Shown here: one piece after another, positions 1-55,602 of the stretch | Layout: every line of letters begins with the position of its first letter | How positions within the stretch are numbered: position 1 is the stretch's first letter | Source: Amoebidium appalachense | Taxonomy: Eukaryota > Protista > Ichthyosporea | Direction: 5' to 3' | Assembly: GCA_963693365.1 (NCBI GenBank) | Contig: CAVNZM010000015.1 | Coordinates: 5,960,624 to 6,024,623, forward strand | Length of the DNA stretch: 64,000 nt | Notes under the pieces: model-generated | The model's input: only the letters and a program-made list of their open reading frames with translations | What the model was told of the DNA's origin: nothing | Database searches by the model: none | Program-made: the position numbers and the translations under genes

Positions 1-4
1 GGGG

Positions 5-1657
5 TTAGCCCAAGGGAAGGGATAGGAACTCGTGGACCCAGGAGGGGAAGGGGCAGGGCTCTGGTTGCAGGGAAGGTCGGAGTCGTCGGGCCCGGGGAAG
101 TTGGTTACGAGAAATGGCATCGGCCAGATGGTTGAGGGGTCCTGGTAGGTAGGATGCCTGTAACGTAAATTGGTATTGCATTTCCATGCGGGTGATGAAC
201 CGAATAAGTTTGGCCATCACGGGGTGGGGGGAAGACCGGGAGTGCAGGTCGGACACAGCACCCGTGTTGTCGCATAAAATACGGACATGGTGGGTGGACC
301 AGGAGGGGGCCCAGAGGGCCACGGCGGCTGCGATGGCCAGGAGTTCGATGACGGAAGAACCGAGTTTACCCTCATGAGCATAGAGGGCTTGGGTGGAGGG
401 GGACCAGGGCATGAAGAACCATTGGTCGAGCCAGTGGCCACCTAGACCCACCGATCCGGCAGCATCAGTGGCCAGGGTGGTGTATGTGGGGGGTGTGATG
501 AGGTGCACCCCATTCCATGATGTGAGGAACTGGTGCCATTCGGCTATGTCGGCCCGGGCGGCAGCAGTCAGTCGTATGTGGTGGTGGCCGGCAAGGTGTG
601 GGTGGGTCCGGAGAAGGGCCCATAGGCGCTGGGAGAAGGCCCTCCCGGGGGGAACCAGCTGGGCACACCAGGTGAGTTTGCCGAGGAGGGACTGGAGGTC
701 CCGAATGGTGATGGTGGGCTTTGGGTGGGAAGTGAGGTCGAGTAGGTCCGAGAGCTTGGAAGCCGGGATTCGTGCCTCCATGGCGATGGAGTCGAATTCG
801 ATACCGATGAAGACGACACGGGTAGCCGGGCCCTGCATCTTGTCTTCGGAGATGGCAATGTGCAGCTCTCGGCAGAGTTGCAGGAAGGTGGATAGGTGAC
901 GTTGGCACTGCTCTTGTGTGGGGGCGACTATAATCCAGTCGTCTACGTAGTGGCGGATGAGGGTAATACCGTGCTGGTGTGCCAGCCACTGTAGGGTGGC
1001 CGCGATCCGTTCCCAGATGGCTGGGCTAGATTTCAGGCCGAAGGGCAGTCTGGTTTCAACGTAAAAATGCCCTTGCCATTTGAATGCCATTAAGTGGTGG
1101 TCTTCCGGTCGGATGGGCATGTGCCGGAAGGCAGCCTGCACATCTGCCACGGCCATGTAGCAGCCGGGGCCTGCGTCGAGAATGAGTTGGGTGACATCCC
1201 GGGCGCGAATGTACTGAAGTTCGTCGGGGTAGGTGATGTTGTCATTGACACTGCCACCCCGGGGCCAGGAGAGGTGGTGGATTCGACGGTACTTGGGGGG
1301 GTTCCCTTTCTTGGTAACGGCGCCGATGGGGGAGGAACGGTGGACGGGAAATTCGTCAAAGAATTGGGCCGGGGAGAGGGGGCCGCGCAGGTGGCCGAGG
1401 GCGACTTCTTTGGCAATATCCACCGTGATAGCGGCAGCTGCCTCCGGGGTGGTGGGTAGGTTGGGGCCCACCCGAGAGGTGGAGGGGCCGCGATAGCCGA
1501 TGTCGACGCCGAATTCGACATCGTGGAGGAGTTGTGCGGCGAATGGTTGGTCCGGGTAGGAGGCCAGCAGTTCCCGGAGGCGGGAGGTGTCAATGTGGTG
1601 CTGGGGCAGCGGGCGGGCCACCGGGTCTGAGCCTCGGGGGAAGGGGGTGGTTAGCAA
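5..1657 (-). CDS. DIRS/Ngaro-type reverse transcriptase-RNase H
   Basis: RT motifs KYRRIHHLS, ADVQAAF, LPFGLKSSP and YVDD; RNase H motifs TDAAG, ELLA, CDN and LADAISR. No ATG at the N-terminus. Confidence 0.92.
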   Translation of the reverse strand: MLTTPFPRGSDPVARPLPQHHIDTSRLRELLASYPDQPFAAQLLHDVEFGVDIGYRGPSTSRVGPNLPTTPEAAAAITVDIAKEVALGHLRGPLSPAQFFDEFPVHRSSPIGAVTKKGNPPKYRRIHHLSWPRGGSVNDNITYPDELQYIRARDVTQLILDAGPGCYMAVADVQAAFRHMPIRPEDHHLMAFKWQGHFYVETRLPFGLKSSPAIWERIAATLQWLAHQHGITLIRHYVDDWIIVAPTQEQCQRHLSTFLQLCRELHIAISEDKMQGPATRVVFIGIEFDSIAMEARIPASKLSDLLDLTSHPKPTITIRDLQSLLGKLTWCAQLVPPGRAFSQRLWALLRTHPHLAGHHHIRLTAAARADIAEWHQFLTSWNGVHLITPPTYTTLATDAAGSVGLGGHWLDQWFFMPWSPSTQALYAHEGKLGSSVIELLAIAAAVALWAPSWSTHHVRILCDNTGAVSDLHSRSSPHPVMAKLIRFITRMEMQYQFTLQASYLPGPLNHLADAISRNQLPRARRLRPSLQPEPCPFPSWVHEFLSLPLG

Positions 1658-1688
1658 GGGTGGTGTACCCTTGGGGAGATCCCGGCAG

Positions 1689-1738
<50 letters not shown>

Positions 1739-2136
1739 CAGGGCCCCGGGGGGTTAGAGTAGGGCAGCTGGGCCCAAGTGAGGGTTGGCAGGGAGGGGAG
1801 CGGGGCCCTGTGCAGGGGAATGTGCCCGAGCACGCGGGGGTGTGGGCGGACACAGCGGTAGAAGAAGGGGGGGGGGGAGGGAGTGCTAGGTGAGTGTAAG
1901 GGGGGGGGGGGGGAGGCTCGTGGGATGGGGGGGGGGAGTAAGATTATGTGCAGTGGCCAGAATAAAAGTCTTTGTGTAGGGACATTTATTCGTGACGCGC
2001 GCGGGCGCCGTAGTTGGCCTGCGAAATTTTGTACTCAGCCCTATTGGCCCGTTCTCCCGAGCTCCGTTTCCCTGTACTCGTGTGTCCTAGCTCCTAACCC
2101 CTATGTTCTAGCTGTGTGTGTGGGTGTGCGCGTAGA

Positions 2137-3307
2137 CTAGGCATTGTGCTTGCAGTCTTTGCGGGGGTGTGTGCCAGAGCAGAGCGGGCACACGTGGGAG
2201 AAGGGGCAGGGCTGCTTAGCGCAGGACCGACCGTTAATGTGGAAATTCCTGCAGTGCGTCGCGGGTAGATCCACGGGTCGGGCCGGTTTTGCCGGGCCGG
2301 GTTGCGGGCCAGGGCGGTTCGGGGTGTGACCCCCGCCGGGCTTGTGGGGCGGCTTAAAGCCGTCAAGACCACAGCCGGGCTTGGGGTACATGGGGCAGGC
2401 CGCGCTGGGGTGGTCGGGGGAAGCCACAGCGCTGACATGCGTCCGGGATGAGCAGAGTGGGTGGCAGGAGGAGATCCTGGTGGAGTTGGGCGAGCAGGTT
2501 GGGGCACTCGATCGGAGCCCGACCCTGCTGGTGGGCAACGGTGCGGGCGTATACGTCATAGTTGTGGATCTGGGCCCACGGGTATCGGGTGCTGAGGCGA
2601 GTGATGTGCTGAGTCCAAAGTACGTCTTTGTCCGTGGGAAGGCCGAGGTGGTGCTTGGCGGCCATGTAATGGGTCCAAGCTTGGATCCAAATGACGAGTG
2701 AACACAGGGGAACGGGTTTGTCTTGGCGAAAAGTCTCGATGCTGCCGTCGTCGGCCATGCGCAGATGCTGACCTTTCTTGGATGGGGCCAGGAGGGCGGC
2801 GGGGGTGAACTTATACAGATCGACGAAACGATTGGCGCGCAAATCTGCCAGCACATCCGCGGGCGGAAGCGGGAGTGTGCCCGGCTGAATGTCGCCAGTG
2901 TTCTCACCTGTGATGGGGGGCGCGGGCAGGGCAGGTAGGTCTAGGTCAGGGCCGAGATGCAGCCCCGGGGAAACCTCCCCGGGTGTGGAGGGCGCGGCGG
3001 GGGGCGCGGGAGGGTCGCGGTTGGTGAGAGCAGCCAGGACGCCAGCCATCTGGGTGCTGATGGCGGTGAGGGCGGCCAGGACGGCGTCTTGAGAAGTCAT
3101 CTGCGGGGACGGCGGGGCCTGAGGGGGGACTTCAGGAGTGGAGGGGAGAGTAGCCGGCGGGTCCGGGTCCGTGGTGGTATGGGCCGCTGGAGGCGCGTCA
3201 GTGTGCGCGGGAGCGTTGGTCAGCCTGTGGCGGAGGTCGCTGCGGGTCAGGCGCTTAGGTGCCGCGGCAGGGGCGGCGGCTGAGGCCTGGCGCTTTTTCG
3301 GCGGCAT
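2137..3307 (-). pseudogene. Ngaro gag-like ORF with one frameshift near 2415 (G-run, possibly a sequencing error)
   Basis: Same protein as intact ORF 27576-28745, split between ORFs 2363-3379 and 2137-2907. Confidence 0.85.
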
Positions 3308-3338
3308 GCTGACCGGCGTAGGGAAAGATAGGGAGAAT

Positions 3339-3687
3339 GAAAAGGAATATATAGCTGTAAGGCTGTGGATGCTAAACACAGAAGATGTGTTTGTAGCTTG
3401 CTGATCTGCTAAAAACTGTCGTGCTTATATACCTAAGCCTACCGATCTGAGCCAATCAAAAATCGATCTAGTGATATGTGAAATCTGATCCGAGCCAATC
3501 ATAACTCGGTCTAGTGATCTGTGGTATCTGATGTTTTGACTGGCTAATAGGTGCCCGTGTGCGGGCAGCCAACCGCTAACTGCTAAAACACGAAATGAAG
3601 CCTACATGGTTATGTTGGTATCGAACACCCATCCTACGTGTTTACCCAGAAAAAATATTTATGTCAATAATTTCCACAAATAAAACC
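3339..3687 (-). promoter_or_regulatory. Ngaro A repeat (~350 bp) with two CCAAT boxes in a short internal duplication and a TATA box
   Basis: On the element strand gattggct occurs twice, then ggtatataagc ~130 bp before the gag ATG. Repeated at 4343-4690, 5066-5395, 8415-8752, 23901-24248 and 28787-29134. Confidence 0.75.
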
Positions 3688-4342: not shown

Positions 4343-4818
4343 AGGTTTTATTTGTGGAAATTATTACATAAATATTTTTCTGGGTAAACACGTAGGATGG
4401 GTGTTCGATACCAACACAACCATGTAGGCTTCATTTCGTGTTTTAGCAGTTAGCGGTTGGCTGCCCGCACACGGGCACCTATTAGCCAGTCAAAACATCA
4501 GATACCACAGATCACTAGACCGAGTTATGATTGGCTCGGATCAGATTTCACATATCACTAGATCGATTTTTGATTGGCTCAGATCGGTAGGCTTAGGTAT
4601 ATAAGCACGACAGTTTTTAGCAGATCAGCAAGCTACAAACACATCTTCTGTGTTTAGCATCCACAGCCTTACAGCTATATATTCCTTTTCACATGGACCT
4701 CACGGATCAATAAATTGATGACTGGGGCTTGCCGTGGTTTACAACCATTGCAGGTTCACTTTCGTCCAAGGGGATGTCCCCCTAGAGGCAACACACGTCC
4801 CGCAGTAGTTTTCATAGA
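4343..4818 (+). mobile_element. Solo A-B relic of the Ngaro element
   Basis: Full A repeat, shortened spacer, then B repeat ending gtagttttcataga. No ORFs. Confidence 0.85.
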
Positions 4819-5425
4819 AACATTACTCTTATGCAAACAAAAAATACCAAAAAGAATCATGACAAAAAAAGAAGAAAAAAGAAGAAAAAAGAAAAAGAAA
4901 ACTACCACACAAGCACAACAGGCTGGGCTGGGGCGACACAGAAACGAAAAACGGAAACAACAGCAGCCATAGGACAAAGAGCCGGTACCCACCTCTAGAG
5001 TGGCAAAAAAAGAGTCGACAGAACGAACCTCAAACATAGTAAGGACGGAAACCCGGACCAGAACTAGGTTTTATTTTAAAATTACATAAATATTTTTTGG
5101 TAAACACGTAGGATGGGTGTCCGATATCAACAGACTTCGTTTCATGTTTTAGCAGTTCGCGTTCGGCTGCCCGCATACGGGCACCTATTAGCCGATCAAA
5201 ACATCAGATTCCACAGATCACTAGACCGAGTTTGATTGGCTCAGGATCAGATTTCACATAACACTAGATCGATTTTGATTGGCTCAGATCGGTAGCCTTA
5301 GGTATATAAGCACGACAGTTTTTAGCAGATCAGCAAGCAACAAACACATCTTCTGTGTTTAGCACCTACAGCTTTACAGCTATATTTTTCTTTTCTTCTC
5401 CCTATCTTTCCCTACGCCGGTCAGC

Positions 5426-6597
5426 ATGCCGCCGAAAAAGCGCCAGGCCTCAGCCGCCGCCCCTGCCGCGGCACCTAAGCGCCTGACCCTCAGCGACCTC
5501 CGCCACAGGCTGACCAACGCTCCCGCGGGCACTGACGCGCCTCCAGCGGTCCATACCACCACGGACCCGGACCCGCCGGCTACTCTCCCCCTCCCCCTCC
5601 TGAAGTCCCCCCCTCAGGCCCCGCCGTCCCCGCAGATGACTTCTCAAGACGCCGTCCTGGCCGCCCTCACCGCCATCAGCACCCAGATGGCTGGCGTCCT
5701 GGCTGCTCTCACCAACCGCGACCCTCCCGCGCCCCCCGCCGCGCCCTCCACACCCGGGGAGGTTTCCCCGGGGCTGCATCTCGGCCCTGACCTAGACCTA
5801 CCTGCCCTGCCCGCGCCCCCCATCACAGGTGAGAACACTGGCGACATTCAGCCGGGCACACTCCCCGCTTCCCCCCGCGGATGTGCTGGCAGATTTGCGC
5901 GCCAATCGTTTCGTCGACCTGTATAAGTTCACCCCCCGCCGCCCTCCTGGCCCCATCCAAGAAAGGTCAGCATCTGCGCATGGCCGACGACGGCAGCATC
6001 GAGACTTTTCGCCAAGACAAACCTGTTCCCCTGCGTTCACTCGTCATTTGGATCCAAGCTTGGACCCATTACATGGCCGCCAAGCACCACCTCGGCCTCC
6101 CCACGGACAAAGAAGTACTTTGGACTCAGCACATCACTCGCCTCAGCACCCGATACCCGTGGGCCCAGATCCACAACTATGACGTATACGCCCGAACCGT
6201 TGCCCACCAGCAGGGTCGGGCTCCGATCGAGTGTCCCAACCTGCTCGCCCAACTCCACCAGGATCTCCTCCTGCCACCCACTCTGCTCATACCGGACGCA
6301 TGTCAGCGCTGCGGCTTCCCCGACCACCCCAGCGCGGCCTGCCCCATGTACCCCAAGCCCGGCTGTGGTCTTGATGGTTTCGAGCCGCCCCACAAGCCCG
6401 GCGGGGGACAAACCCCCAACCGACCCGGCCCGCAACCCGGCCCGGCACCACCGACCCGACCCGTGGATCTACCCGCGACACACTGCAGGAATTTCCACAA
6501 CGGTCGGTCCTGCGCTAAGCAGCCCTGCCCCTTCTCCCACGTGTGCCCGCTCTGCTCTGGCACACACCCCCGCAAAGACTGTAAGCACAATGCCTAG
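5426..6597 (+). pseudogene. Ngaro gag-like ORF with frameshifts near 5865-5935
   Basis: ORFs 5426-5926 and 5881-6597 together match 27576-28745; zinc-finger motifs retained. Confidence 0.85.
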
Positions 6598-6989
6598 TCT
6601 ACGCGCACACCCACACCCACAGATAGAACATAGGGGCTAGGAGCTAGGTTACACGGGTCCAAGGACACGGAGCTCGGGAAAAACGGGGCACTAGGGCTGA
6701 GTAACAATTTTCGCAGGCCAACTACGGCGCCCGCGCGCGCCAAGAATAAATGTCCCTACACAAAGACGTTATTCTGGCCACTGCACATAATTTTACTCCC
6801 CCCCCCCCCATCCCACGAGCCTCCCCCCCTTACACTCACCTAGCACTCCCTCCCCCCCCCCCCTTCTTCTAACTCTGTGTACGCCCACACCCGCGCGTGC
6901 TCGGGCATCCCCTGCACAGGGCCCCGCTGCCCTCCCTGCAAACCCTCCCTCGGGCCCAGCTGCCCTACTCTAAACCCACCGGGGCCCTG

Positions 6990-7021
<32 letters not shown>

Positions 7022-7257
7022 GATGCCGGGATCTCCCCGAGGGTGCCCCACCCTTGCTAACCACCCCCTTCCCCCGAGGCTCAGCCCCCGGAGGCCCGCC
7101 CGCTGCCCCAACACCACGTTGACACCTCCCGCTTCCGGGAGCTGCTGGCCCCCCTACCCAGCCCAATCATTCGCCGCGCAGCTCCTCCGTAACCAACTTC
7201 CCCGGACCCGACGACTCCGACCTTACCTATCTCCCCTTCCGGAGCAACGCTGGCCGA

Positions 7258-8298
7258 TTGGCCCCCCACTTTGCTCCAGCCGAGCTGCTTCGTGCCACCA
7301 CTACCCTGCAGGAATGCCAGGCCCTGAGTCTCAACCTCGACTCTCGGGCCTTTTACTCCCGGGTGCAAAAAAAAAAAAAAGTATTCATCGATTTTTGTGT
7401 GGCATCTCGGCTGCAATCCTCCGCCGGGTCCTCCCTCCCGGCCTCCCCCCACACCGTGCAGCTTTTTCTCGCCTGGTGTGCCCAACGAGGGGTACAGGCC
7501 TCTTCCTTGGCCGGCTACAATTCGGCCATCACCAGACTCCACCTCGACATGGGCCTCCCTGCTCCCTACCCCCACGACAAGTCTCTGGCCTGGTTCCTCC
7601 GAGGGGTGGGCAGATGGCAGCTTTCTCTCAACATCCGACCCCGATCATCCACCAGGGAGCCCCTCCTGCCCTCCCACCTCAGCATACTCCATGACCAGTG
7701 CCCCAACAAGGCCTCCTCGGCCAATCTACGGCTATGGACGGCCCTCATCGTCGGTTTCTGTGGTCTCCTCCGTTCGGGGGAATTTACCTCCAAAACCCTG
7801 ACTTCCTTTGACCCGTCCCGTCACGTTAAACGGAAGGATGTGACCTTCAGCTACACCCCCACCGGTACTTTGTCCCATGCCACCCTCCACCTGCCAACCT
7901 CCAAGACGGATGTACAGGCCCGAGGTGTCAACGTCACTCTAGCTGCCCTGCCCCTCACCCACTTCTCCCCAGCCCATCTCCTCCGGCAATTCCTGGATAC
8001 AACGTCCGGTCAACCCGACGACCCCCTGTTCAGTCTCGGTGGCATTCCCTACACCAAGGGTGCTTTCTCTGCCGACTTCCGTGCCCTCCTCTCCCGGGCA
8101 GGCCTCTCACCCTCCCGGTTTGCCGGCCACAGCCTCCGCATAGGGGGGGCCACAGCACTGGCTGAGGCCGGGGTCGACGACTCCCGGATCAAACAACTCG
8201 GCAGGTGGTCCTCCGACTGTTTCCTGATTTATACCCGCCTTCGTCCGGCCTCCATTGCTGCCACTACCACACGTGTATTCGCCTCTATTCTTAAGTGA
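7258..8298 (+). CDS. Tyrosine recombinase (YR) of Ngaro copy 2
   Basis: Catalytic R-K-H-R-W-Y set: LLRSGEF, SKTD, HSLRIGGAT, GRWSSDCFLIY. Confidence 0.92.
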   Translation: MAPHFAPAELLRATTTLQECQALSLNLDSRAFYSRVQKKKKVFIDFCVASRLQSSAGSSLPASPHTVQLFLAWCAQRGVQASSLAGYNSAITRLHLDMGLPAPYPHDKSLAWFLRGVGRWQLSLNIRPRSSTREPLLPSHLSILHDQCPNKASSANLRLWTALIVGFCGLLRSGEFTSKTLTSFDPSRHVKRKDVTFSYTPTGTLSHATLHLPTSKTDVQARGVNVTLAALPLTHFSPAHLLRQFLDTTSGQPDDPLFSLGGIPYTKGAFSADFRALLSRAGLSPSRFAGHSLRIGGATALAEAGVDDSRIKQLGRWSSDCFLIYTRLRPASIAATTTRVFASILK

Positions 8299-8974
8299 AA
8301 CCTTTGGAGCAAGCATACTGCTCTCGTGCCGTGGTTTACAACCATTGCAGGTTCACTTTCGTCCAAGGGGATGTCCCCCTAGAGGCAACACACGTCCCGG
8401 AGTAGTTTTCATAGAGGTTTTATTTGTGGAAATTATTGACATAAATATTTTTCTGGGTAAACACGTAGGATGGGTGTCCGATATCAACAGACTTCGTTTC
8501 ATGTTTTAGCAGTTCGCGTTCGGCTGCCCGCATACGGGCACCTATTAGCCGATCAAAACATCAGATTCCACAGATCACTAGACCGAGTTTGATTGGCTCA
8601 GGATCAGATTTCACATAACACTAGATCGATTTTGATTGGCTCAGATCGGTAGCCTTAGGTATATAAGCACGACAGTTTTTAGCAGATCAGCAAGCAACAA
8701 ACACATCTTCTGTGTTTAGCACCTACAGCTTTACAGCTATATTTTTCTTTTTCACCCACCCACCTACACCCTACACTCAACCCCCATTGATCCCCACATA
8801 CGTGCTGTTTTTTCACGGGGCGAAGACTTCCCCCGTTTTTTGGGCACAAGGACCTCACGGATCAATAAATTGATGACTGGGGGCTTGCCGTGGTTTACAA
8901 CCATTGCAGGTTCACTTTCGTCCAAGGGGATGTCCCCCTAGAGGCAACACACGTCCCGGAGTAGTTTTCATAGA

Positions 8975-9748
8975 TAAGTCTAAAGAAGCAGAAAATAGCT
9001 TGAACGACTGGTGGATGGGGATGATAGCTATAGTGCTAACAGCAAAAGTAGTACCCACAGTCGCTGGTTCATGAACGTGAAAAGGCAACGTGCATCGGCA
9101 GCCAGCAGGCACGCGCACACGCACGCACACACATACACACACACGCACACAGACACAGACATAATCACAGGCACGGACACAGACCAGACAGACAAACGCC
9201 ACATGCACAAAAGCAGGCAACACAAACCTAACCTTCAAACGGCCTTTCAGCCGTTAGGCGAAGAAGCTGCAGCATACAGCATGGTCGAAACCATTCAGCA
9301 CGGTGGCTGCGCGACCTGCGGAGGGCAAAAAAAGAGTCGACAGAACCAACCTCAAACTTAGTAAGGACGGAAACCCGGACCAGAACTTATGAAGTCTAGA
9401 GAAGCAGAAAATAGCTTGAACGACTGGTGGAGGGGATGATAGCTATAGTGCTAACAGCAAAAGTAGTGCCCACAGTCGCTGGTTCATGAACGTGAAAAGG
9501 CAACGTGCATCTGCAGCCAGCAGGCACACGCACACGCACGCACACACATACAATCACACGCACACAGACACAGACACAGACACAGACATAATCACAGGCA
9601 CGGACACAGACCAGACAGACAAACGCCACATGCACAAAAGCAGGCAACACAAAACTAACCTTCAAACGGCCTTTCAGCCGTTAGGCGAAGAAGCTGCAGC
9701 ATGCAGCATGGTCGAAACCATTCAGCACGGTGGCTGCGCGACCTGCGG
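8975..9748 (+). repeat. Tandem duplication of a ~410-bp unit whose first copy is interrupted by Ngaro copy 2
   Basis: 5003-5065 matches 9325-9388, and 8976-9322 matches 9392-9748. Confidence 0.85.
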
Positions 9749-22047: not shown

Positions 22048-24366
22048 CACACATGCACACATGCACGGACACGAATCCCCCCTTCCCCTTCCCTCTCCAC
22101 CGAGCACATGCACACAGCACAGACATGCACACACACACACACACCACACACGACGCACACAGACATGCACACACACACAAACACACAACACACACACACA
22201 CATACACACAGACACACACACACACACACACACACATACATGCACACACACGGTGCATTTCCCCCCTCCCCTTCCCTCTCCACAGAGCACACACACACAC
22301 ACGTGCACACATGCACACACACGTGCATCCCCCTCTCCCCCCTGCCCCAACGAGCACAACACACACACAGACATGCACACACACACAACATACACAGACA
22401 TCCACACACAGACACAGACACGCAACACACACACACACACGCACAAACACACACATGCACATATGCACACACAGACACACACACATGCACATGCACACTC
22501 ACATATGCACACACACACACACACGCAAACACACACACACACACACACATACAGATATGCACACACACACACTGTCTCTCTCTCTTTTCTCCCTCCCTCC
22601 CACTTTGTAATACGTATATTAAATGTAATCTCTAGTTTGTGTTATGTTTCAGTTCATATGCTTAGTGTAAATGCCACACTCCTATTATGTAAAGTGTAGC
22701 ATCGATCTCCGAACTTTATACTTTAATGTGTTGTATCGGCTTTAATCGTGTGTTGTAATATCGATTAGAATATTTATATTGTGTACACGGATCCACCCAC
22801 TCAGGGAGAGACGTTAATTTCGTGTGTACATAAATATCTCTGGTTATAGTTATCTATTACTATCTTTTTTTGATCTGTGCCTCTTTTCCTTCCTCTTTCT
22901 CCTTCCTTATTTTCTTTCCTTTCTCTCCTTGTCTTCATGTGTATAGTCGTATTTCTTTTACTAAAATTTAGGTAGATTTTTATTAATAGTATTAGGTACA
23001 ATAGCACAAAATAATGACTTATTTATTATTTCATGTGTTGCCGCTTAACCAATATCAAGGTTAAGTGTGATAGAGTCTTCAGTATGTATAGAGAAGAAAA
23101 AGTCCTATCGTGTACGTCTCCGACGAGAAAGCAAAACAGAAAAAGTAGGTACTGTTGCACTCACCACTGTGTCTCTCTTTCATCCCAAATACTTATATAT
23201 TTAACAGTTAGCAGCCTTTGCACGCTCCCTACACACACTAGAACTAGCGATGTTTTTCAATCATGGATCCAAACAAAATGGAAACAAAATAACCAGTGGA
23301 AAGGTGAAGGGAAGACTGGCCCGAAGCAACCACCATTTTCAATGGGAAATCATCTCGGAGATGACCGGCACAAAGGTGCGACTGTGGATGTTGACGCGAC
23401 ACTACGTCCCCCTACCACCGTCGCGGTGACGGGAACCCCCCACGGCACGGACCCGGGACCAAGGAGGCCCGCAATTGCCCCGCCCAATGAAGAACATCGA
23501 CCCTTCCGTCCTCACCACCGTTGCCCAGAGAGGACCGGGGGGCCACCCAGGCACCCGAGTCCGCATCCTCACCGTAGTGGGATGCCGTGCCCCAGCCCGG
23601 GAATCACACCACCACCTGAGGCGCAGACCACGGAACCAGCTCCAGTCCCTCCAAGATGAGTCCATTCACTTCACTCGTCTCTATGAAAAACTACTCCGGG
23701 ACGTGTGTTGCCTCTAGGGGGACATCCCCTTGGACGAAAGTGAACCTGCAATGGTTGTAAACCACGGCAAGCCCCCAGTCATCAATTTATTGATCCGTGA
23801 GGTCCATGTGCCCAAAAAACGGGGGAAGGCTTCGCCCCGTGAAAAAACAGCACGTATGTGTGGATCAATGGGGGTTGTGTGTGGGTATAGGTGGGTGGGT
23901 GAAAAGGAATATATAGCTGTAAGGCTGTGGATGCTAAACACAGAAGATGTGTTTGTAGCTTGCTGATCTGCTAAAAACTGTCGTGCTTATATACCTAAGC
24001 CTACCGATCTGAACCAATCAAAAATCGATCTAGTGATATGTGAAATCTGATCCGAACCAATCATAACTCGGTCTAGTGATCTGTGGTATCTGATGTTTTG
24101 ACTGGCTAATAGGTGCCCGTGTGCGGGCAGCCAACCGCTAACTGCTAAAACACGAAATGAAGCCTACATGGTTATGTTGGTATCGAACACCCATCCTACG
24201 TGTTTACCCAGAAAAATATTTATGTCAATAATTTCCACAAATAAAACCTCTATGAAAAACTACTCCGGGACGTGTGTTGCCTCTAGGGGGACATCCCCTT
24301 GGACGAAAGTGAACCTGCAATGGTTGTAAACCACGGCACGAGAGCAGTATGCTTGCTCCAAAGGTT

Positions 24367-25427
24367 TCACTTAAGAATAGAGGCGAATACACGTGTGGTG
24401 GTGGCAGCAATGGAGGCCGGACGAAGTCGGGTATAGATCAGGAAGCAGTCGGAGGACCACCGGCCGAGTTGTTTGATCCGGGAGTCGTCGACCCCGGCCT
24501 CAGCCAGTGCTGTGGCCCCCCCGATGCGGAGGCTGTGTCCGGCAAACCGGGAGGGTGAGAGGCCTGCCCGGGAGAGGAGGGCACGGAAATCGGCAGAGAA
24601 AGCACTCTTGGTGTAGGGGATGCCACCGAGACTGAAGAGGGGGTCGTCGGGTTGACCGGACGTTGTATCCAGGAACTGCCGGAGGAGATGGGCTGGGGAG
24701 AAGTGGGTGAGGGGCAGGGCAGCTAGGGTGACGTTGACACCTCGGGCCTGTACATCCGTCTTAGAGGTTGGCAGGTGGAGGGTGGCATGGGACAAAGTAC
24801 CGGTGGGGGTGTAGCTGAAGGTCACGTCCTTCCGTTTAACGTGACGGGACGGGTCGAAAGAAGTCAGGGTCTTGGAGGTAAATTCCCCTGAACGGAGGAG
24901 ACCACAGAAACCGACGATGAGGGCCGTCCATAGCCGGAGATTGGCCGAGGAGGCCTTGGTGGGGCACTGGCCGTGGAGTAGGTGGAGGTGGGAGGGGAGG
25001 AGGGGTTCCCTGGTGGATGAGCGGGGTCGGATGTTGTGAGAAAGCTGCCATCGGCCTACCCCCCGTAGGAACCAGGCCAGAGACTTGTCGTGGGGGTAGG
25101 GAGCAGGGAGGCCCATGTCGAGGTGGAGCCTGGTGATGGCCGAATTGTAGCCGGTTAAGGAAGAGGCCTGTACCCCTTGTTGGGCACACCAGGCGAGAAA
25201 AAGTTGCACGGTGTGTGGGGAGGCCGGGAGGGAGGACCCGGAGGAGGATTGCAGCCGAGATGCCACACAGAAATCGATGAACACTTTTTGCACCCGGGAG
25301 TAAAAGGCCCGAGAGTCGAGGTTGAGACTCAGGGCCTGGCATTCCTGCAGGGTAGTGGTGGCTCGAAGCAGCTCGGCCGGAGCAAAGTGGGGGGCCAATC
25401 TGCCAGTGTTGCTCCGGAACGGGAGAT
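24367..25427 (-). CDS. Tyrosine recombinase of Ngaro copy 3 (frame open from the predicted splice acceptor at 25427)
   Basis: LLRSGEF, SKTD, HSLRIGGAT, GRWSSD..Y motifs. Confidence 0.92.
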
Positions 25428-25454
25428 CTGGGGGGGGGGGGGGGGGGGGGGGGG

Positions 25455-27138
25455 TTAGCCCAAGGGAAGGGATAGGAACTCGTGGACCCAGGAGGGGAAG
25501 GGGCAGGGCTCCGGTTGCAGGGAAGGTCGGAGTCGTCGGGCCCGGGGAAGTTGGTTACGAGAAATGGCATCGGCCAGATGGTTGAGGGGTCCTGGTAGGT
25601 AGGATGCCTGTAACGTAAATTGGTATTGCATTTCCATGCGGGTGATGAACCGAATAAGTTTGGCCATCACGGGGTGGGGGGAAGACCGGGAGTGCAGGTC
25701 AGACACAGCACCCGTGTTGTCGCATAAAATACGGACATGGTGGGTGGACCAGGAGGGGGCCCAGAGGGCCACGGCGGCTGCGATGGCCAGGAGTTCGATG
25801 ACGGAAGAACCGAGTTTACCCTCATGAGCATAGAGGGCTTGGGTGGAGGGGGACCAGGGCATGAAGAACCATTGGTCGAGCCAGTGGCCACCTAGACCCA
25901 CCGATCCGGCAGCATCAGTGGCCAGGGTGGTGTATGTGGGGGGTGTGATGAGGTGCACCCCATTCCATGATGTGAGGAACTGGTGCCATTCGGCTATGTC
26001 GGCCCGGGCGGCAGCAGTCAGTCGTATGTGGTGGTGGCCGGCAAGGTGTGGGTGGGTCCGGAGAAGGGCCCATAGGCGCTGGGAGAAGGCCCTCCCGGGG
26101 GGAACCAGCTGGGCACACCAGGTGAGTTTGCCGAGGAGGGACTGGAGGTCCCGAATGGTGATGGTGGGCTTTGGGTGGGAAGTGAGGTCGAGTAGGTCCG
26201 AGAGCTTGGAAGCCGGGATTCGTGCCTCCATGGCGATGGAGTCGAATTCGATACCGATGAAGACGACACGGGTAGCCGGGCCCTGCATCTTGTCTTCGGA
26301 GATGGCAATGTGCAGCTCTCGGCAGAGTTGCAGAAAGGTGGATAGGTGACGTTGGCACTGCTGTTGTGTGGGGGCGACTATAATCCAGTCGTCTACGTAG
26401 TGGCGGATGAGGGTAATACCGTGCTGGTGTGCCAGCCACTGTAGGGTGGCCGCGATCCGTTCCCAGATGGCTGGGCTAGATTTCAGGCCGAAGGGCAGTC
26501 TGGTTTCAACGTAAAAATGCCCTTGCCATTTGAATGCCATTAAGTGGTGGTCTTCCGGTCGGATGGGCATGTGCCGGAAGGCAGCCTGCACATCTGCCAC
26601 GGCCATGTAGCAGCCGGGGCCTGCGTCGAGAATGAGTTGGGTGACATCCCGGGCGCGAATGTACTGAAGTTCGTCGGGGTAGGTGATGCTGTCATTGACA
26701 CTGCTACCCCGGGGCCAGGAGAGGTGGTGGATTCGACGGTACTTGGGGGGGTTCCCTTTCTTGGTAACGGCGCCGATGGGGGAGGAACGGTGGACGGGAA
26801 ATTCGTCAAAGAATTGGGCCGGGGAGAGGGGGCCGCGCAGGTGGCCGAGGGCGACTTCTTTGGCAATATCCACCGTGATAGCGGCAGCTGCCTCCGGGGG
26901 TGGTGGGTAGGTTGGGGCCCACCCGAGAGGTGGAGGGGCCGCGATAGCCGATGTCGACGCCGAATTCGACATCGTGGAGGAGTTGTGCGGCGAATGGTTG
27001 GTCCGGGTAGGAGGCCAGCAGTTCCCGGAGGCGGGAGGTGTCAATGTGGTGCTGGGGCAGCGGGCGGGCCTCCGGGTCTGAGCCTCGGGGGAAGGGGTGG
27101 TTAGCAAGGGTGGTGTACCCTTGGGGAGATCCCGGCAG

Positions 27139-27179
<41 letters not shown>

Positions 27180-27325
27180 CAGGGCCCCGGGGGGTTAGAG
27201 TAGGGCAGCTGGGCCCAAGTGAGGGTTGGCAGGGAGGGCAGCGGGGCCCTGTGCAGGGGAATGTGCCCGAGCACGCGGGGGTGTGGGCGGACACAGAGGT
27301 AGAAGAAGGGGGGGGGGAGGGAGTG
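25455..27325 (-). CDS. RT-RNase H of Ngaro copy 3 (one apparent frameshift in a G-run near 26898)
   Basis: ORFs 25455-27107 and 26806-27294 together give the same protein as 5-1657; YVDD present. Confidence 0.88.
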
Positions 27326-27575
27326 CTAGGTGAGTGTAAGGGGGGGGGGGGAGGCTCGTGGGATGGGGGGGGGGGAGTAAAATTATGTGCAGGGGCCAGA
27401 ATAAACGTCTTTGTGTAGGGACATTTATTCTTGACGCGCGCGGGCGCCGTAGTTGGCCTGCGAAATTTTGTACTCAGCCCTATTGGCCCGTTCTCCCGAG
27501 CTCCGTTTCCCTGTACTCGTGTGTCCTAGCTCCTAACCCCTATGTTCTAGCTGTGTGTGTGGGTGTGCGCGTAGA

Positions 27576-28745
27576 CTAGGCATTGTGCTTGCAGTCTTTG
27601 CGGGGGTGTGTGCCAGAGCAGAGCGGGCACACGTGGGAGAAGGGGCAGGGCTGCTTAGCGCAGGACCGACCGTTAATGTGGAAATTCCTGCAGTGCGTCG
27701 CGGGTAGATCCACGGGTCGGGCCGGTTTGGCCGGGCCGGGTTGCGGGCCAGGGCGGTTAGGGGTGTGACCCCCGCCGGGCTTGTGGGGCGGCTTAAAGCC
27801 GTCAAGACCACAGCCGGGCTTGGGGTACATGGGGCAGGCCGCGCTGGGGTGGTCGGGGAAGCCACAGCGCTGACATGCGTCCTGGATGAGCAGGGTGGGT
27901 GGCAGGAGGAGATCCTGGTGGAGTTGGGCGAGCAGGTTGGGGCACTCGATCGGAGCCCGACCCTGCTGGTGGGCCACGGTGCGGGCGTATACGTCATAGT
28001 TGTGGATCTGGGCCCACGGGTATCGGGTGCTGAGGCGAGTGATGTGCTGAGTCCAAAGTACGTCTTTGTCCGTGGGAAGGCCGAGGTGGTGCTTGGCGGC
28101 CATGTAATGGGTCCAAGCTTGGATCCAAATGACGAGTGAACGCAGGGGAACGGGTTTGTCTTGGCGAAAAGTCTCGATGCTGCCGTCGTCGGCCATGCGC
28201 AGATGCTGACCTTTCTTGGATGGGGCCAGGAGGGCGGCGGGGGTGAACTTATACAGGTCGACGAAACGATTGGCGCGCAAATCTGCCAGCACATCCGCGG
28301 GGGGAAGCGGGAGTGTGCCCGGCTGAATGTCGCCAGTGTTCTCACCTGTGATGGGGGGCGCGGGCAGGGCAGGCAGGTCAAGGTCAGGGCCGAGATGCAG
28401 CCCCGGGGAAACCTCCCCGGGTGTGGAGGGCGCGGCGGGGGGCGCGGGAGGGTCGCGGTTGGTGAGAGCAGCCAGGACGCCAGCCATCTGGGTGCTGATG
28501 GCGGTGAGGGCGGCCAGGACGGCGTCTTGAGAAGTCATCTGCGGGGACGGCGGGGCCTGAGGGGGGACTTCAGGGGTGGAGGGGAGAGTAGCCGGCGGGT
28601 CCGGGTCCGTGGTGGTATGGGCCGCTGGAGGCGCGTCAGTGTCCGCGGGAGCGTTGGTCAGCCTGTGGCGGAGGTCGCTGCGGGTCAGGCGCTTAGGTGC
28701 CGCGGCAGGGGCGGCGGCTGAGGCCTGGCGCTTTTTCGGCGGCAT
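27576..28745 (-). CDS. Ngaro gag-like protein, 389 aa
   Basis: Basic MPPKKRQ start, Pro/Ala-rich N-terminus, CX2CX4HX4C knuckle (CQRCGFPDHPSAAC), C-terminal CCCH finger plus CPLCSGTHPRKDC. Confidence 0.9.
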   Translation of the reverse strand: MPPKKRQASAAAPAAAPKRLTRSDLRHRLTNAPADTDAPPAAHTTTDPDPPATLPSTPEVPPQAPPSPQMTSQDAVLAALTAISTQMAGVLAALTNRDPPAPPAAPSTPGEVSPGLHLGPDLDLPALPAPPITGENTGDIQPGTLPLPPADVLADLRANRFVDLYKFTPAALLAPSKKGQHLRMADDGSIETFRQDKPVPLRSLVIWIQAWTHYMAAKHHLGLPTDKDVLWTQHITRLSTRYPWAQIHNYDVYARTVAHQQGRAPIECPNLLAQLHQDLLLPPTLLIQDACQRCGFPDHPSAACPMYPKPGCGLDGFKPPHKPGGGHTPNRPGPQPGPAKPARPVDLPATHCRNFHINGRSCAKQPCPFSHVCPLCSGTHPRKDCKHNA

Positions 28746-29134
28746 GCTGACCGGCGTAGGGAAAGATAGGGAGAATGAAAAGGAGTGAAAAGGAATATAT
28801 AGCTGTAAGGCTGTGGATGCTAAACACAGAAGATGTGTTTGTAGCTTGCTGATCTGCTAAAAACTGTCGTGCTTATATACCTAAGCCTACCGATCTGAAC
28901 CAATCAAAAATCGATCTAGTGATATGTGAAATCTGATCCGAGCCAATCATAACTCGGTCTAGTGATCTGTGGTATCTGATGTTTTGACTGGCTAATAGGT
29001 GCCCGTGTGCGGGCAGCCAACCGCTAACTGCTAAAACACGAAATGAAGCCTACATGGTTATGTTGGTATCGAACACCCATCCTACGTGTTTACCCAGAAA
29101 AATATTTATGTCAATAATTTCCACAAATAAAACC

Positions 29135-32100
29135 TAGCTGAGAAGTTCTTCAATGAACTCACCACCAGAGACGACCTCACCCCTGAGTTCAACCGTCTTA
29201 TCGAAGACTATCACTTCGGTGATAAGCTATTCCCCGACTTCGAGTCCCTCCACAACCACGTCAAGGGCATCGAGTTACGTCAAGACCTCAAGATGCAACT
29301 CCGGAGCAACCGTGCCCACCGTGCCTCCAAGTCCAGCATGGCATTAAATGCCAGTGCTCCCCCCCGTGATCTTCCTCGCCGTGACTTACGCAACCGACTT
29401 GACCGTACCCCTGGCACGGACCTCCGAACTCGTCTCTCCCGTCAGCACACCCGATCCCGTTCCCCCCACCGGCCTGCCTTCCGGTCCACGTCTCGTTCCC
29501 CCAGTCGTTCCCGTTTCTCGGGTTCCCGTCGTTCTGATTCCCCGGCTCGTTCTAACACCCCGTCCGTGAAAGCATGCTCCTACTGCCACGAGCCTGATCA
29601 CACGATCATCGATTGCCCTGAGCCGAAATGCCGTATGTCCAGACACAACCGTTCCCGTCAAGGCAGTGAGAAATCTGTCTCCTTTGCTTTCTCGGCATAC
29701 AATGCTAGCTCCGTCCCCGTGTCCTCCGACCCTGCCTGGGATTCCGGGTGTAACATGACTGTCTGCCCCACCCGTGAGTTCTTCCATGACCTCACTCCCC
29801 TTCCGACACCGACTCCCGTTGCTGCCTTCAATGGCACCCCCGTCTTGGCCACCCACACCGGCCATATCGTCATCAACACCACCACCGACCATGGCACTGC
29901 CACCCTTACCATTGAAGCCTACTACACCCCGTCTGGCCAAGCCTTCCTCATTTCAACATCCCAAGCTGCTGCCGAATACATCAAGGGTGATTTGAATGAT
30001 GCCTCCACTCCGTCATTCCTCTTCGACCGACTCACCGGCCGTCATCTCGTCAACCTCCGTCTCCACAACGGTCTGTATTACTTCAAGGACTACACCATTC
30101 AACCACCCACTCGTCCTGTGGCTCTGGCTGCCACTACCAGTGTTAACCCATCCATCTGGCACCATCGTCTGGGGCACCGTGCTATGACCAGCATCAAGGA
30201 CATGGTGAAACACGACCTTGTTATTGGTCTCCCCTCGTCTGTCCTCGACTGTGATGTTCCTGATTGTCATGGCTGCATTATGGGTAAAACCACCAAGGCT
30301 CCGTTCAAGGGTGACCGTCCTCACTCCAACATCCCCGGTCATGAATGGCATTGGGATTTTTTTGAGCCTACCACAACATCGTACGGAGGTTCCAAGGTTG
30401 CTCTCGTCACTGTCTGCCGTGCCTCTGGACTCGTCAAGATCTACCCGATGGCCGACCGTACAACCACCCTGGACATTCTCACAGCTCACACCAACCTCGT
30501 TGCTACCCATGCCCCCTCCAAAGTTGGTGTCTACCACTTCGACTCCGGCTCTGAGTTCACCTCCAAGGCTACCCGTGCTTTTTGCCTCTCCCAGGGCATC
30601 AAGGCCAGCTATGCTCCGGTGGACTGCCCTCAACTGAATGGCTACGTTGAACGTCGTATGCGGTTCCTACAAGAGATTGTTTGTTGCCTCCTCCATCAAG
30701 TCCAAGATCAGTCTCTGTCCCCCAAACTGTGGGCTTAAGCCCTCCAACATGCCGCCTACATCATCAACGTCACCCCGTCCACGACTGCCAATGGTCGTAC
30801 ACCATTCGAGGTTTTCTACGGTGTCAAGCCCGACATCTCCGAGCTCAAAGTGTTCGGTTGCCCTGCCTACACTCATGTGCCAGCCTCTAAACGGACCAAG
30901 CTGGCCCCACCGTCAAACTCGGCATGTATATCGGCTATGATCTTCAATCACACTGCCACCGGATCTTCAACCCCACCACCCATCGTGTCGGCCTCTTCGG
31001 TGATGTGATTTTCGACGAATCAGCCTATCTCCCGTCCGACATTCCCTCAACACTTCCGACCCCCGACACTACTGCTACCTCGACCACCCCACCCCCCACA
31101 GTTGACACTGAAGATGATGTTTGTCTGGTGTACTCTGGCCCCCCTCCTGCCATCGTCGTTCCCCCGACACCCCCCCCCCACCGGCGCCCCTGCCCCCGTG
31201 CCCGTCCAGCCTGCCGACCCTCATCCTGCCCCTGGCAACGTCACACCCATCCGACCCGGCTCCCCCGACAACTTCCACTCGGCCCCGTCCAGCCCGGAGG
31301 TTGCCCCCCCTGCAATTCCGAACTTCCAAGTTCCCCCCCCCCCCGTCTCCACCTCCCCCGGTTCCTGCACCCCGTCGTTCTGCCCGTCTACAGGGCAAGG
31401 TTGGACTTCAAGCCACCACCACCCTGCCAGTCCCCCCCGGTCCCCCCATCAACATCGACCAACTACCCAAACTTGTCCGTCAACTGTGTTCCGGCCCCAA
31501 TGGTGACCAGGTCAAGTCAGCCCTCACTGCTGAGTATCAAGCCTACGTTGACAAAGACATCTTTGAACTTGTTGACCCTCCCCCTGGTGCTAACATCGTC
31601 GGCTTCAAGTGGATTGTCTCCGAGAAAACTCTCAACTCGGCTGGTGACACCAAGATCAAGGCCCGTGGTGTTGCTCAAGGCTTCAGTCAGCAATACGGTG
31701 TTGACTATGAGTTGATTGAGAGCCCTGTCATCCGTCCGGCTGCTCTCTGTGCTATCCTAGCTCTGGCCGTTGTTGAAGGTCATGACATCCATCAACTCGA
31801 CGTGTCTACGGCCTTTCTCAACAGCCCACTCACCGAGACCATCTACATGAAACAACCCCCGGGATTCATCACCATGGCCACACTTGGCAAGGTCTGGAGA
31901 CTCAAGAAAGCCCTGTACGGCCTCAAGCAGGCCTCCAAGGCTTGGTACGACTTCCTCGACGGCATTCTTCTTGCCCATGGCCTGACCCGTACTAAGACAG
32001 ACCCGTGCATCTACCTCCGGTTCTTCCCCAACAACGATGTGGTTCGGGCTGGTAACTACGTCGACGACTCCACCATCACCAACACCCGGGGTTCTACTGC

Positions 32101-33021
32101 TGCCAGTGACCTGGCTGCCCACATCAGCAAGATGGCCAGCTGTCGTATGAGTCCATTTGACCGTATGCTCGGTGTTGATTTTAATCACTCTGATCCCCAT
32201 CACCTCCACATGCACCAGAGGTCTTACATCATGGATATCATCCACGACTTCAACCTCACCGATGCCAAGTCCAAGTCTACCCCCATCCCTGCAGGCACCA
32301 CCGTCTCCCTGGCTGACTGCCCCCCCCAACCGTTCACCGTGCCCTACCGTGAGTTACTCGGCCGTCTCCTCTGGGTGGCCCGGTGCACACGTCCCGACAT
32401 TGCCTATGCCATCGGCTTCCTTGGTCGGTTCAGCACCAACCCCGGCAAGACTCACTGGGACCTTCTCCGTCGTGTGGCCCGGTACCTGCTCGGCACCAAG
32501 TTGACCTTGGCATTGACTACAAGTACTCGGCCACCCAGCCCCCCATACTCGAATGCTACACGGATGCTGACTTTGCTGGTTGTGCCGACAGCAAGAAGTC
32601 TACCACCGGCTACATCATCGAGTTTGCTGGTATGCCCATCATCTGGTACTCCAAGCTCCAGCCCATAACGGCCACCAGCACCACTGAAGCTGAGCTGATT
32701 GCTCTCAATGCTGGCACCCAAGAAGTTGCTTGGGTCCGTGACCTCTTCAAGGAACTCGGCTGCCCCATGCTTGCTCCGACTCCGGTGTACTGTGACAACC
32801 AGTCGACCATTGCCATCGTCAACTCCACCGGCATCAAGCACCGTACCAAACACATTGCCGTCCGGTATCACAACACCAAGGACTACATTGCAAGTGGGGA
32901 TGTGGTTGTCCACTACGTTGAGTCAGCCCACAACTTAGCTGACATCCTCACCAAACCCCTCCCCGGCCCGAGTCATGTCACCCATCGTGCTCGACTTTGT
33001 TTACCGGATATTGTGGATTGA
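29135..33021 (+). pseudogene. Copia gag-pol (stop at 30736 and several frameshifts); N-terminal gag part lies at ~23300-23680
   Basis: CSYCHEPDHTIIDC knuckle, DSGC protease, WHHRLGH...CHGC, integrase WDF/FDSGSEF/VERR, RT QLDVSTAFLN/ALYGLKQA/YVDD, RNase H YTDADFAG/ADILTKPL. Confidence 0.93.
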
Positions 33022-34622: not shown

Positions 34623-34699
34623 CACACACACACATGCACATGCACATGCACATGCACCCGTTGTAGCATAGAACCCCCCTTGTAGCATAGTATATGTAC

Positions 34700-35434
34700 T
34701 GTAAACATGGTTGTGTATATTGTCGGACAGACTACGGGAGTCGCGCCCTGTAGTTAGTCGTGCTTACTGACCAATCAAAATGGTTGGTCGGGAAGCAGCG
34801 GCGTTGTCCCACAATCGCACGGCGAACTGTCCCCTATAAAAGGCGGCAGTATCAGCCAGATCCAATCAGTCCTGGACTCGAATCGATGAGTGCCGAGGAT
34901 AAGATCCCATCTCAAGATTGATCAGATCCCATACTGTAAAAGCAATCTGCGCTGCCGCTATGATACACAACCAAATTTACATTGGCGACCGCGGCAGGAC
35001 CCAAGGGGGCTGTTGGTCGGAGGGCCACGCCTGTATAACTTTGGGTGGAGCCGTTCGCGGGCTGCTACGACCTTGCCGGTGGGGTGTAGCGCGCGACTCC
35101 CCAACGGGAGGGGAGATGTAAACATGGTTGTGTATATTGTCGGACAGACTACGGGAGTCGCGCCCTGTAGTTAGTCGTGCTTACTGACCAATCAAAATGG
35201 TTGGTCGGGAAGCAGCGGCGTTGTCCCACAATCGCACGGCGAACTGTCCCCTATAAAAGGCGGCAGTATCAGCCAGATCCAATCAGTTGGGAACATGCCT
35301 GGACTCGAATCGATGAGTGCCGAGGATAAGATCCCATCTCAAGATTGATCAAATCCCATACTGTAAAAGCAATCTGCTTAAAAGGGTTTAGGGTTCAATC
35401 TGCGCTGCCGCTATGATACACAACCAAATTTACA
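34700..35434 (+). mobile_element. TRIM-like miniature LTR element
   Basis: LTRs 34700-34981 and 35117-35434 (TGTAAA...TTTACA), PBS tggcgaccgcggcaggac at 34983-35000, PPT gggaggggaga, 4-bp TSD GTAC, TATA-like ctataaaa in the LTR. Confidence 0.92.
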
Positions 35435-35438
35435 GTAC

Positions 35439-36410
35439 ATATGTTACCTAGACATTATTGGGTTTTCAATAACTACCCACAGAACAGCCTCTAGCACGAG
35501 AAATTTACCACAAAGTTTATGGGGGGGATGGTAAATGTGCCCCTGGAGTACGAGGGTCACACGAAAAAAGCACAACGTTGTAGCTCGTATAGAACCCCCC
35601 TTGTAGCATAGTATATGTCCATGTGTTACCTCAGTAGACATTTATGGTTTTTTCAATAACTACCAACAGAACAGCCTCTAGCACGAGAATTTTACCACAA
35701 AGTTTATGGGGGGGATGGTAAATGTGCCCCTGGAGTACGAGGGTCACACGAAAAAAACACAACGTTGTAGCTCGAATAGAACCCCCCTTGTAGCATAGTA
35801 TATGTACATGTGTTGCTTACACATTAAGTTGGTTTTTTCAATAACTACCCACAGAACAGCTTCTAGCACGAGAAATTTACCACACAGTTTATGGGGGGGA
35901 TGGGGAATGTGCCCCTGGAGTACGAGGGTCACACAAAAAAAAACACAACGTTGTAGCTCGTATAGAACCCCCCTTGTAGCATAGAATATGTACATATGTT
36001 ACCTAGACATTATTGGTTTTTTCAATAACTACCCACAGAACAGCTTCTAGCACGAGAAAGTTACCACACAGTTTATGGGGGGGATGGGGAATGTGCCCCT
36101 GGAGTGCGAGGGTCACACGAAAAAAACACAACGTTGTAGCTCGTATAGAACCCCCCTTGTAGCATAGTATATGTACATATGTTACTTGCACATTATTGGT
36201 TTTTTCAATAACTACCCACAGAACAGCTTCTGGCACGAGAAATTTACCACAAAGTTTATGGGGGGGATGGTGAGTGTGCCTCTGGAGTACGAGGGTCACC
36301 CGAAAAAAACACAACATTGTAGCCCGGATTGAAACCCCCTTTGTACCATATACATCATATATCATGCAGCATGTGTTACTTTCGCGTTATTGGTTTCCTA
36401 GCACGAGATA
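35439..36410 (-). repeat. Same 183-bp satellite in inverted orientation, ~5 units, with a further stub at 34660-34699
   Basis: Reverse complement of the 10935-12590 units. Confidence 0.93.
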
Positions 36411-41129: not shown

Positions 41130-50861
<9,732 letters not shown>

Positions 50862-55100: not shown

Positions 55101-55602
55101 ACGGGTAAGGGTAGATGACTAAGGGGGATTGGTGTGGCTGCAGGCAGTGCGTTTTCCATCATCTCCACCCCCATGTCTCCCTTCGACTACTTCATTGAGA
55201 ACGACGAACAGTGCGTCAGCTTCCGCATCAAAATCCGGCCCCTTGAGGTTCGACCCCCCCCCCCCCCCCCCCCCACATTACATATAATGTGTGCGCAATG
55301 TGAGGAGGCATCTATGTGCTGCGACGTGCTACTTTGTGTCCACCATGTGCCCCCCCCCCCCCCCCCTTGCTTTCGGGCCGGATATCTTAGCATCTCCCCG
55401 TTTCGCCTGTTCTTCCGTCCTACCAGTTTGCGTATGTGTCGTCCCAAACAGCCTCGCATCCTGCCCCCCTGCGTGGCTAATGGTGCCTATCAGGCTGATA
55501 GTAGCAGGTTTCTTGCTCATAAGGTTTAGGCAGGTCTCTGCTGTGGGAGTTATTTGAGTCAGGGAGGGACGGGGGAATGAGGGAGGGAGGGATTGCCGGG
55601 GG

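Follow-up and report, generated by a model that had tools for sequence, protein, structure and literature searches.

Retrotransposons of the Ngaro type (order DIRS) follow a distinctive plan, in which split direct repeats, arranged A1-[ORFs]-B1-A2-B2, accompany open reading frames (ORFs) for a gag-like protein, for reverse transcriptase and RNase H (RT/RH) and for a tyrosine recombinase (YR), with no methyltransferase (PMC8547959; PMC3783388, PMC13465315). Here we describe an element of this type on the minus strand of a 64,000-nucleotide (nt) stretch of the genome of Amoebidium appalachense (contig CAVNZM010000015.1, positions 5,960,624 to 6,024,623; hereafter the window). With a probability of roughly 0.7, this element has one usable start codon, its RT exon being spliced onto the end of gag via a 593-nt intron and its YR exon likely being reached by a second splice.

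In the accessible text of the Ngaro papers YR is in frame, frameshifted or overlapping, and no route of expression is given; the element described here, in contrast, shows a GT..AG junction to RT in one sequencing run. The strings 'splic' and 'intron' have no matches in PMC3783388 and PMC3266345. The literature searched, which included neither the founding Ngaro paper nor later reviews, held no description of spliced RT or YR expression in Ngaro/DIRS elements, and accessible work gives no account of how the overlapping, often ATG-less RT and YR frames of DIRS-order elements are translated. The 2004 paper that named Ngaro reportedly notes that some YR retrotransposons contain spliceosomal introns, and our findings could to that extent be less new.

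According to the accessible part of PMC4495291, a gag of DIRS1-like origin that mammals co-opted is inferred to have carried a splice acceptor and a poly(A) signal. Ogre elements of plants (Ty3/gypsy) splice between their ORFs (PMC3735527, accessible part). Ogre differs, however, in being a long terminal repeat element with a DDE integrase and without a third, separately spliced recombinase exon. Its splicing removes stops and permits a full polyprotein. Alternative splicing also sets the balance of Gag and Pol in copia of Drosophila and BARE1 of barley (PMC3735527, accessible part), but by the opposite logic: spliced RNA gives Gag only and unspliced RNA gives Gag-Pol, whereas here we propose that unspliced RNA gives Gag. 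Foamy virus Pol comes from a spliced mRNA, and the start of the Env signal peptide of Rous sarcoma virus (RSV) is gag-encoded and added by splicing (PMC7828637, accessible part); foamy Pol is not a Gag fusion, however, and both foamy virus and RSV are without a tyrosine recombinase.

Results

The features of the element, which is copy 3 of three in the window, are as follows.

29135-23679, minus strand: complete Ngaro-type tyrosine-recombinase retrotransposon
28785..29135, minus strand: terminal repeat A1, 351 nt, 99.7% identical to A2; TATA box at 28879
27576..28745, minus strand: gag-like ORF1, 389 aa, the sole ORF with its own ATG
28340..28348, minus strand: donor D1, CAG/GTGAGA, cut between 28346 and 28345; phase 1, 400 nt after the ATG
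27665..27673, minus strand: donor D2, ACG/GTCGGT, cut between 27671 and 27670; phase 1, inside a CCCH finger, used in a joint of run X19
27078..27670, minus strand: 593-nt GT..AG intron of X19, which takes out the gag stop, the gap AATAAA and long C-runs
27424..27429, minus strand: AATAAA in the gag-RT gap, a possible poly(A) signal for a Gag-only mRNA
27078..27105, minus strand: RT acceptor, a GCTAAC branch motif at 27105, a pyrimidine-rich spacer and CAG, cut between 27078 and 27077; used in X19
25455..27077, minus strand: RT/RNase H exon, RVT_1 match
25428..25459, minus strand: predicted YR acceptor, GCTAAC, a 25-nt C-run and AG, cut between 25428 and 25427
24367..25427, minus strand: tyrosine recombinase exon, Phage_integrase match, with R179, H298-x-x-R301, W324 and Y332
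24248..24338, minus strand: repeat B1, 91 nt, 100% identical to B2
23899..24249, minus strand: repeat A2, which pairs with A1
23679..23791, minus strand: AATAAA at 23791, a putative poly(A) signal, followed by repeat B2 (23769-23679), from repeat comparison

Neither RT nor YR can be made whole from its own ATG

Counted from the acceptors, the first methionine is residue 157 of RT and residue 104 of YR. Homology to relatives begins at RT residue 7 and at YR residue ~25-45. Because the first methionine lies deep inside each homologous region, neither enzyme can be made whole from an ATG of its own, which bears out the observation in an earlier note on this DNA that both frames are without an ATG near their start. 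Nor does the gag frame continue into RT: stops occur in all three frames at most 40 nt from the gag stop, and the only ATG in the gag-RT gap opens just 13 codons. A slippery heptamer was found neither at the end of gag nor in the RT/YR overlap. Together, the three-frame stops and the lack of such a heptamer rule out gag-to-pol frameshifting or read-through. The YR frame is open from 25554 and overlaps the end of RT by 100 nt, as in relatives.

A junction joins the end of gag to RT

Sequencing runs were compared with the element via their contigs, through which alone copies outside the window are visible. Of 24 runs listed, none is on record as RNA, which says nothing about whether the element is expressed; eight were compared, X20, X23, X7 and X8 over 24250-28900, and X19, X17, X18 and X2 over 25470-28800, a stretch that leaves the YR exon outside (60, 1536, 25 and 10062 contigs, respectively). 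Contig depths were not used for ranking isoforms.

A contig of X19 joins 27671 to 27077, skipping 593 nt with GT..AG ends (CT..AC on the plus strand), at a depth of 118.5 and with one shared letter. The joint fuses Gag(1-358) in frame to RT/RH, for a protein of ~898 aa in an intact copy; in copy 1 RT/RH is open for 539 codons from the acceptor, and copy 3 carries one extra base at 26896 that is missing from the contigs of X7, X8, X17, X18 and X19 and from part of those of X2. Seven joints are listed for 25470-28800, two of them with GT..AG ends, which a random joint would have ~0.2% of the time. The stretch holds 119 AGs, and the one used here had been named as the likely RT acceptor ahead of the run comparison that showed its use; the alternatives at 27119 (AAG) and 27083 (GAG) were set aside in its favor. 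The seven other compared runs (X17, X18, X2, X20, X23, X7, X8) are without the 27671-27077 joint.

With GT..AG ends, a branch motif and absence from DNA-like runs, the junction has the appearance of a U2-type intron, provided that X19 is RNA. The run is labelled 'DNA?'. That it is RNA we infer from its few contigs versus X2 of the same organism label, from several letters that are minor in X2 and stand at 100% in X19, and from the junction itself; were X19 DNA instead, the joint would have to stem from a precise deletion or from retro-copying of a spliced RNA.

The earlier note had proposed a three-way scheme in which D1 at 28346 feeds acceptors at 27325 or 27248 to give Gag(1-133)-RT. An RT splice joint of the kind that it anticipated was seen, at other sites: the observed junction is composed of donor 27671 and a second GCTAAC/CAG at 27105/27077, both of which the note had missed, and yields Gag(1-358)-RT instead. 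One further joint bears on D1, a contig of X2 in which 431 nt are skipped between 28346 and an AG at 27915, out of frame, with 24 letters on one side and 4 shared letters; a retro-copy of D1-spliced RNA would look like this, which lends weak support to a working D1. X20 is without cover at the acceptors (its gaps are 25342-25653 and 26590-27213) and X23 without cover over the genes; both are uninformative for the acceptors, and no splice joint appears over 24250-28900 in X20 (labelled 'RNA?'), X23, X7 or X8.

The AATAAA of the gag-RT gap is present in all three copies, as the earlier note had it. Across this motif the depth of X19 falls from 675.6 (27434) to 70.8 (27299), and one X20 contig ends at 27422. 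We do not count these observations as evidence of polyadenylation: low-depth DNA-like runs also lose cover near the motif, and the ends of RNAs are not visible in contigs. Among the rows listed in the run comparisons, no loose end carries poly(A).

Splice sites in the element, its copies and host genes

Two further copies in the window, 98.6% and 93-94% identical to copy 3, permit a comparison of these sites.

1..3687, minus strand: copy 1, truncated at the RT stop by the edge of the window; D1 at 2908, D2 at 2232, RT acceptor at 1626
5066..8974, plus strand: copy 2, a deletion derivative without most of RT and without the YR acceptor; D1 at 5828, D2 at 6502 and RT acceptor at 7085 kept

D1 lies 400 nt from the ATG in phase 1 and recurs at 400 nt in copy 1 and 403 nt in copy 2, just as previously described, and RT acceptor 27077 is kept in all three copies; with the copies 93-99% identical, such conservation is weak evidence. 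Among GTs upstream of RT, D1 has the top consensus score, and it sits just before the conserved gag core, which starts at about residue 141 between a low-complexity N-terminus and C-terminal CCHC/CCCH fingers. D2 is the only GTNGGT from the gag ATG to the RT acceptor. The sense strand has exactly two GCTAAC motifs, at 27105 and 25459 (about one occurrence is expected by chance), and each precedes an enzyme exon and a CAG in phase 1 with the enzyme frame.

Host splice sites were read off two to three host genes whose exons had been placed by eye. The window holds two intron-rich host genes, at 41130-49720 (minus strand) and 52500-59040 (plus strand), the introns of which are full of C-runs and CA repeats; one of the two is, we take it from its motifs, an AGC-type protein kinase. 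GT was found at 19 of 20 donor anchors (one was misplaced), with GTNGGT in 11 of the 19 and GTGGGT the commonest form (7/19). All 18 usable acceptors end in YAG, and ten have YTRAY 12-26 nt upstream. The claim that the element's acceptor shares the architecture of host introns thus holds for the YAG end and in part for the branch motif; it fails for poly-C, as a C-run stands right before CAG in only 2 of 18. C-runs of at least 12 nt are so common in the window (many dozens) that poly-C alone says little.

A predicted second splice, into YR

The YR acceptor (GCTAAC, C-run, AG) sits exactly at the start of YR homology, and its TAA doubles as the RT stop, as the earlier note had recognized. That the YR exon is reached by a second splice, into this predicted acceptor, is likely. 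D1 is a candidate donor: joining 28346 to 25427 does give a YR frame of 486 aa, and a Gag(1-133)-YR protein would be plausible. We lean slightly toward a Gag-YR fusion of this kind, and consider the 711-aa fusion from D2 possible though less likely; both donors may also be used.

Phase of splice sites in distant Ngaro-like families

Relatives were drawn from the best 80 of at least 535 related stretches. Of these 80, 28 were intact enough to be kept, and they form 17 families, with RT identities of 31-72% and a single assembly standing for 10 of them; the closest relatives P0001 and P0141-P0143 (43-54% identity) are not in the set. Past the AD..SR motif, presumably a motif of RNase H, the first YAG is in phase 1 to YR in 16 of the 17 families (null 0.23); its pyrimidine score averages 13.1 versus 7.5, and its distance from the motif varies from 6 to 36 nt. 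If the best-scoring AG in a wider interval before YR is taken instead, phase 1 is found in 13 of 17. In one family (L015) YR and RT stand at another frame offset, and there the acceptor follows the frame of YR, not that of RT. Before RT, the best AG is in phase 1 in 14 of 17 families (null 0.47, p=0.003). Fifteen families have a donor that closes an ATG-started first exon before the gag core (two had none), and in 10 of them the best such donor is in phase 1 (null 0.40, p=0.037); this is the position class of 28346, which lies just before the conserved gag core. Phase-1 acceptors and D1-type donors, whose conservation across related families was among the checks named in the earlier note, recur. 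All nine donors scoring at least 7.5 are phase 1, a post hoc count on which we do not rely.

Several families (L008, L015, L016, L051, L058, L059 and others) have a gag core without its own ATG and a phase-1 acceptor before that core, and in some of them a small separate upstream ORF ends in a phase-1 donor. A plan with three acceptors is possible in these families. A search for longer proteins gave 2 matches for YR and 76 for RT, of which only P0096 matched the gag profile well; this is a predicted protein of Antrodiella citrinella (1308 aa), with gag profile, RT and YR in one chain (a fungal single ORF).

Class of the element and neighboring sequences

Split direct repeats A1 ... B1-A2-B2, with an A2-B2 spacer of 129 nt, and the ORF order gag-like, RT/RH, YR are those of Ngaro. 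The RNase H part was identified by full-length similarity to relatives, without a Pfam match, and the RT/RH frame ends ~35 codons past AD..SR. No methyltransferase follows RNase H: the 539-aa frame gives only RVT_1 and RVT_thumb at E up to 1. The YR catalytic columns R, HxxR, W and Y are invariant in 20 of 20 aligned sequences. By repeat layout, ORF order and domains, rather than by a tree with named Ngaro elements, the putative assignment matches the published plan. As to a PAT-like identity (split direct repeats plus a methyltransferase, in a group sister to DIRS1-like elements), the repeats fit and a methyltransferase was not found, a comparison of layout and domains. A DIRS1-like identity (inverted terminal repeats with an internal complementary region, methyltransferase) was rejected in view of the split direct repeats and the missing methyltransferase. 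TATATAA is present in A1, with no ATG between it and the gag ATG; the AATAAA at 23791 and B2 likely form the 3' end of full-length RNA.

The element is inserted, in opposite orientation, into a Ty1/copia element (rve, RVT_2; window 22900-33020), within its gag region; the copia frame appears continuous across the insertion, with a shared core of at most 2 nt and no target duplication. The breakpoint of copy 2 (equivalent to 25559/27013) is also present in X19 and X17, and an X20 YR contig agrees with copy 2 at 23 of 29 listed variants; deletion derivatives of this type are a family. L028 is a similar gag+YR derivative from a distant family. A solo A-B repeat with a short spacer and AATAAA occupies window 4343-4818 and resembles the solo AB repeats reported, in the accessible literature, for Cafeteria Ngaros. 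At 34680-36400 a 300-nt repeat is present in duplicate, and ~180-nt units arrayed in tandem come after it; similar sequence is found near 9000-11000.

Discussion

The lack of usable start codons for RT and YR, the lack of frame continuity between gag and RT, and the in-frame 27671-27077 junction are observations. The gag-RT junction and the recurrent phase-1 acceptors support the central idea of the earlier note, that a single promoter is used and that splicing attaches the ATG-less enzyme ORFs to gag; what did not survive are its RT sites.

A number of results weigh against splicing as the route to both enzymes. The gag-RT junction is a single contig, with 30 letters on its short side, from one run of guessed kind ('DNA?'). 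The YR junction was seen in no run, the X19 stretch excluding the YR exon and X20 having no cover at 25427. The X2 joint fits a microhomology deletion equally well, given its short side, shared letters and loss of frame. X20 shows no splice joint, and its contig 27802-28469 crosses D1 unspliced. Among the 80 loci, none of 44 collinear deletions has GT..AG as its best placement, as a spliced retro-copy would, and among 173 RT and YR homologs there is no spliced Gag-RT or Gag-YR fusion protein. In the distant families a D2-like donor is not enriched (the best donor in the last 70 gag codons is in phase 1 in 7 of 17, null 0.40), and D2 may be particular to this lineage. An early ATG is present in 12 of 17 RT frames and 9 of 17 YR frames of relatives, which therefore need not depend on splicing. 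In 15 of 16 YR cases the CAG doubles as an RT glutamine codon, although at 2 to 12 codons past the motif. Lastly, the p-values overstate the case, since the 17 families are related to one another, the tests followed a pattern already noticed by eye, and the scoring schemes are our own.

How else might the enzymes be made? It is improbable, though not negligibly so, that RT is spliced as observed and YR arises without splicing, whether by a ribosomal frameshift where the two frames overlap or by use of the ATG at 25570, either on a message of its own or through re-initiation. The open YR frame overlapping the RT end, the presence of that ATG, and the lack of a YR junction in the compared runs are what such a route would leave; yet the overlap holds no slippery heptamer, the ATG would need a C-run of 24 or 27, not 25, and a clean branch-pyrimidine-CAG site stands exactly at the YR homology start, with phase-1 acceptors before YR in nearly all of the families. 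We give little credence to a single donor at 28346 that feeds both enzymes, each then carrying Gag(1-133) only. D1 is indeed the best-scoring donor, in phase 1 and of a type that recurs in relatives, and contigs drop rare forms, which leaves room for a minor D1-27077 isoform; however, among the joints listed in the eight runs none connects 28346 to any RT acceptor, both ends of such a joint lying within the stretch, whereas D2-27077 is listed. Acceptor 27325, moreover, reaches RT in neither copy (a stop after 42 codons in copy 3, and after 97 codons of the phase-1 frame, short of RT, in copy 1), and 27248 enters the RT frame in copy 3 only across a variable C-run (37, 46 and 29 nt in the three copies), with a stop after 71 codons in copy 1.

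We hold it equally improbable that the junction reflects cryptic repeat splicing, or a DNA deletion in one subfamily, with the enzymes made from non-AUG starts or internal promoters. The label of X19 and the single contig would be in keeping with this, and the out-of-frame D1 product in X2 shows that unproductive joins occur; against it, the X19 joint is in frame, falls on a pre-named acceptor at the homology boundary with 1 shared letter, and does not occur in X2 or X17, which carry the same organism label; acceptor phase is also conserved in relatives.

If RT and YR are both spliced onto gag, then a single promoter in A1 (TATA at 28879) would make the element RNA, which when unspliced would serve both as Gag message and as template for reverse transcription. 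Splicing from D2 to 27077 would give Gag(1-358)-RT/RH, and splicing into 25427 a Gag-YR fusion. Splicing would thus take the place of the frameshifting or read-through of most retroelements and would set the Gag:Pol ratio. We would predict that RT enters the Gag-RNA particle by way of its long Gag part, that the short basic leader MPPKKR carries YR to the nucleus, and that the AATAAA of the gap (27424-27429) ends a Gag-only mRNA.

A broader reading, which we offer tentatively and would not call probable, is that splicing onto gag is the general, ancestral Ngaro route to RT and YR. Phase-1 gag donors would then serve phase-1 acceptors that lie concealed upstream of RT and within the RNase H tail, and this lineage would have added a second donor that sorts RT to the particle and YR to the nucleus, RT keeping the Gag core and YR taking the basic leader only. 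Were this so, the N-termini of most annotated Ngaro RT and YR proteins would be wrong.

The junction coordinates and the phase-1 acceptor signature make the question testable in existing RNA-seq of Ngaro hosts. If enzyme expression by splicing is true of this element, protein annotations of Ngaro-type elements need revision, and it is the host spliceosome that would control the Gag:RT:YR ratios and the supply of unspliced template.

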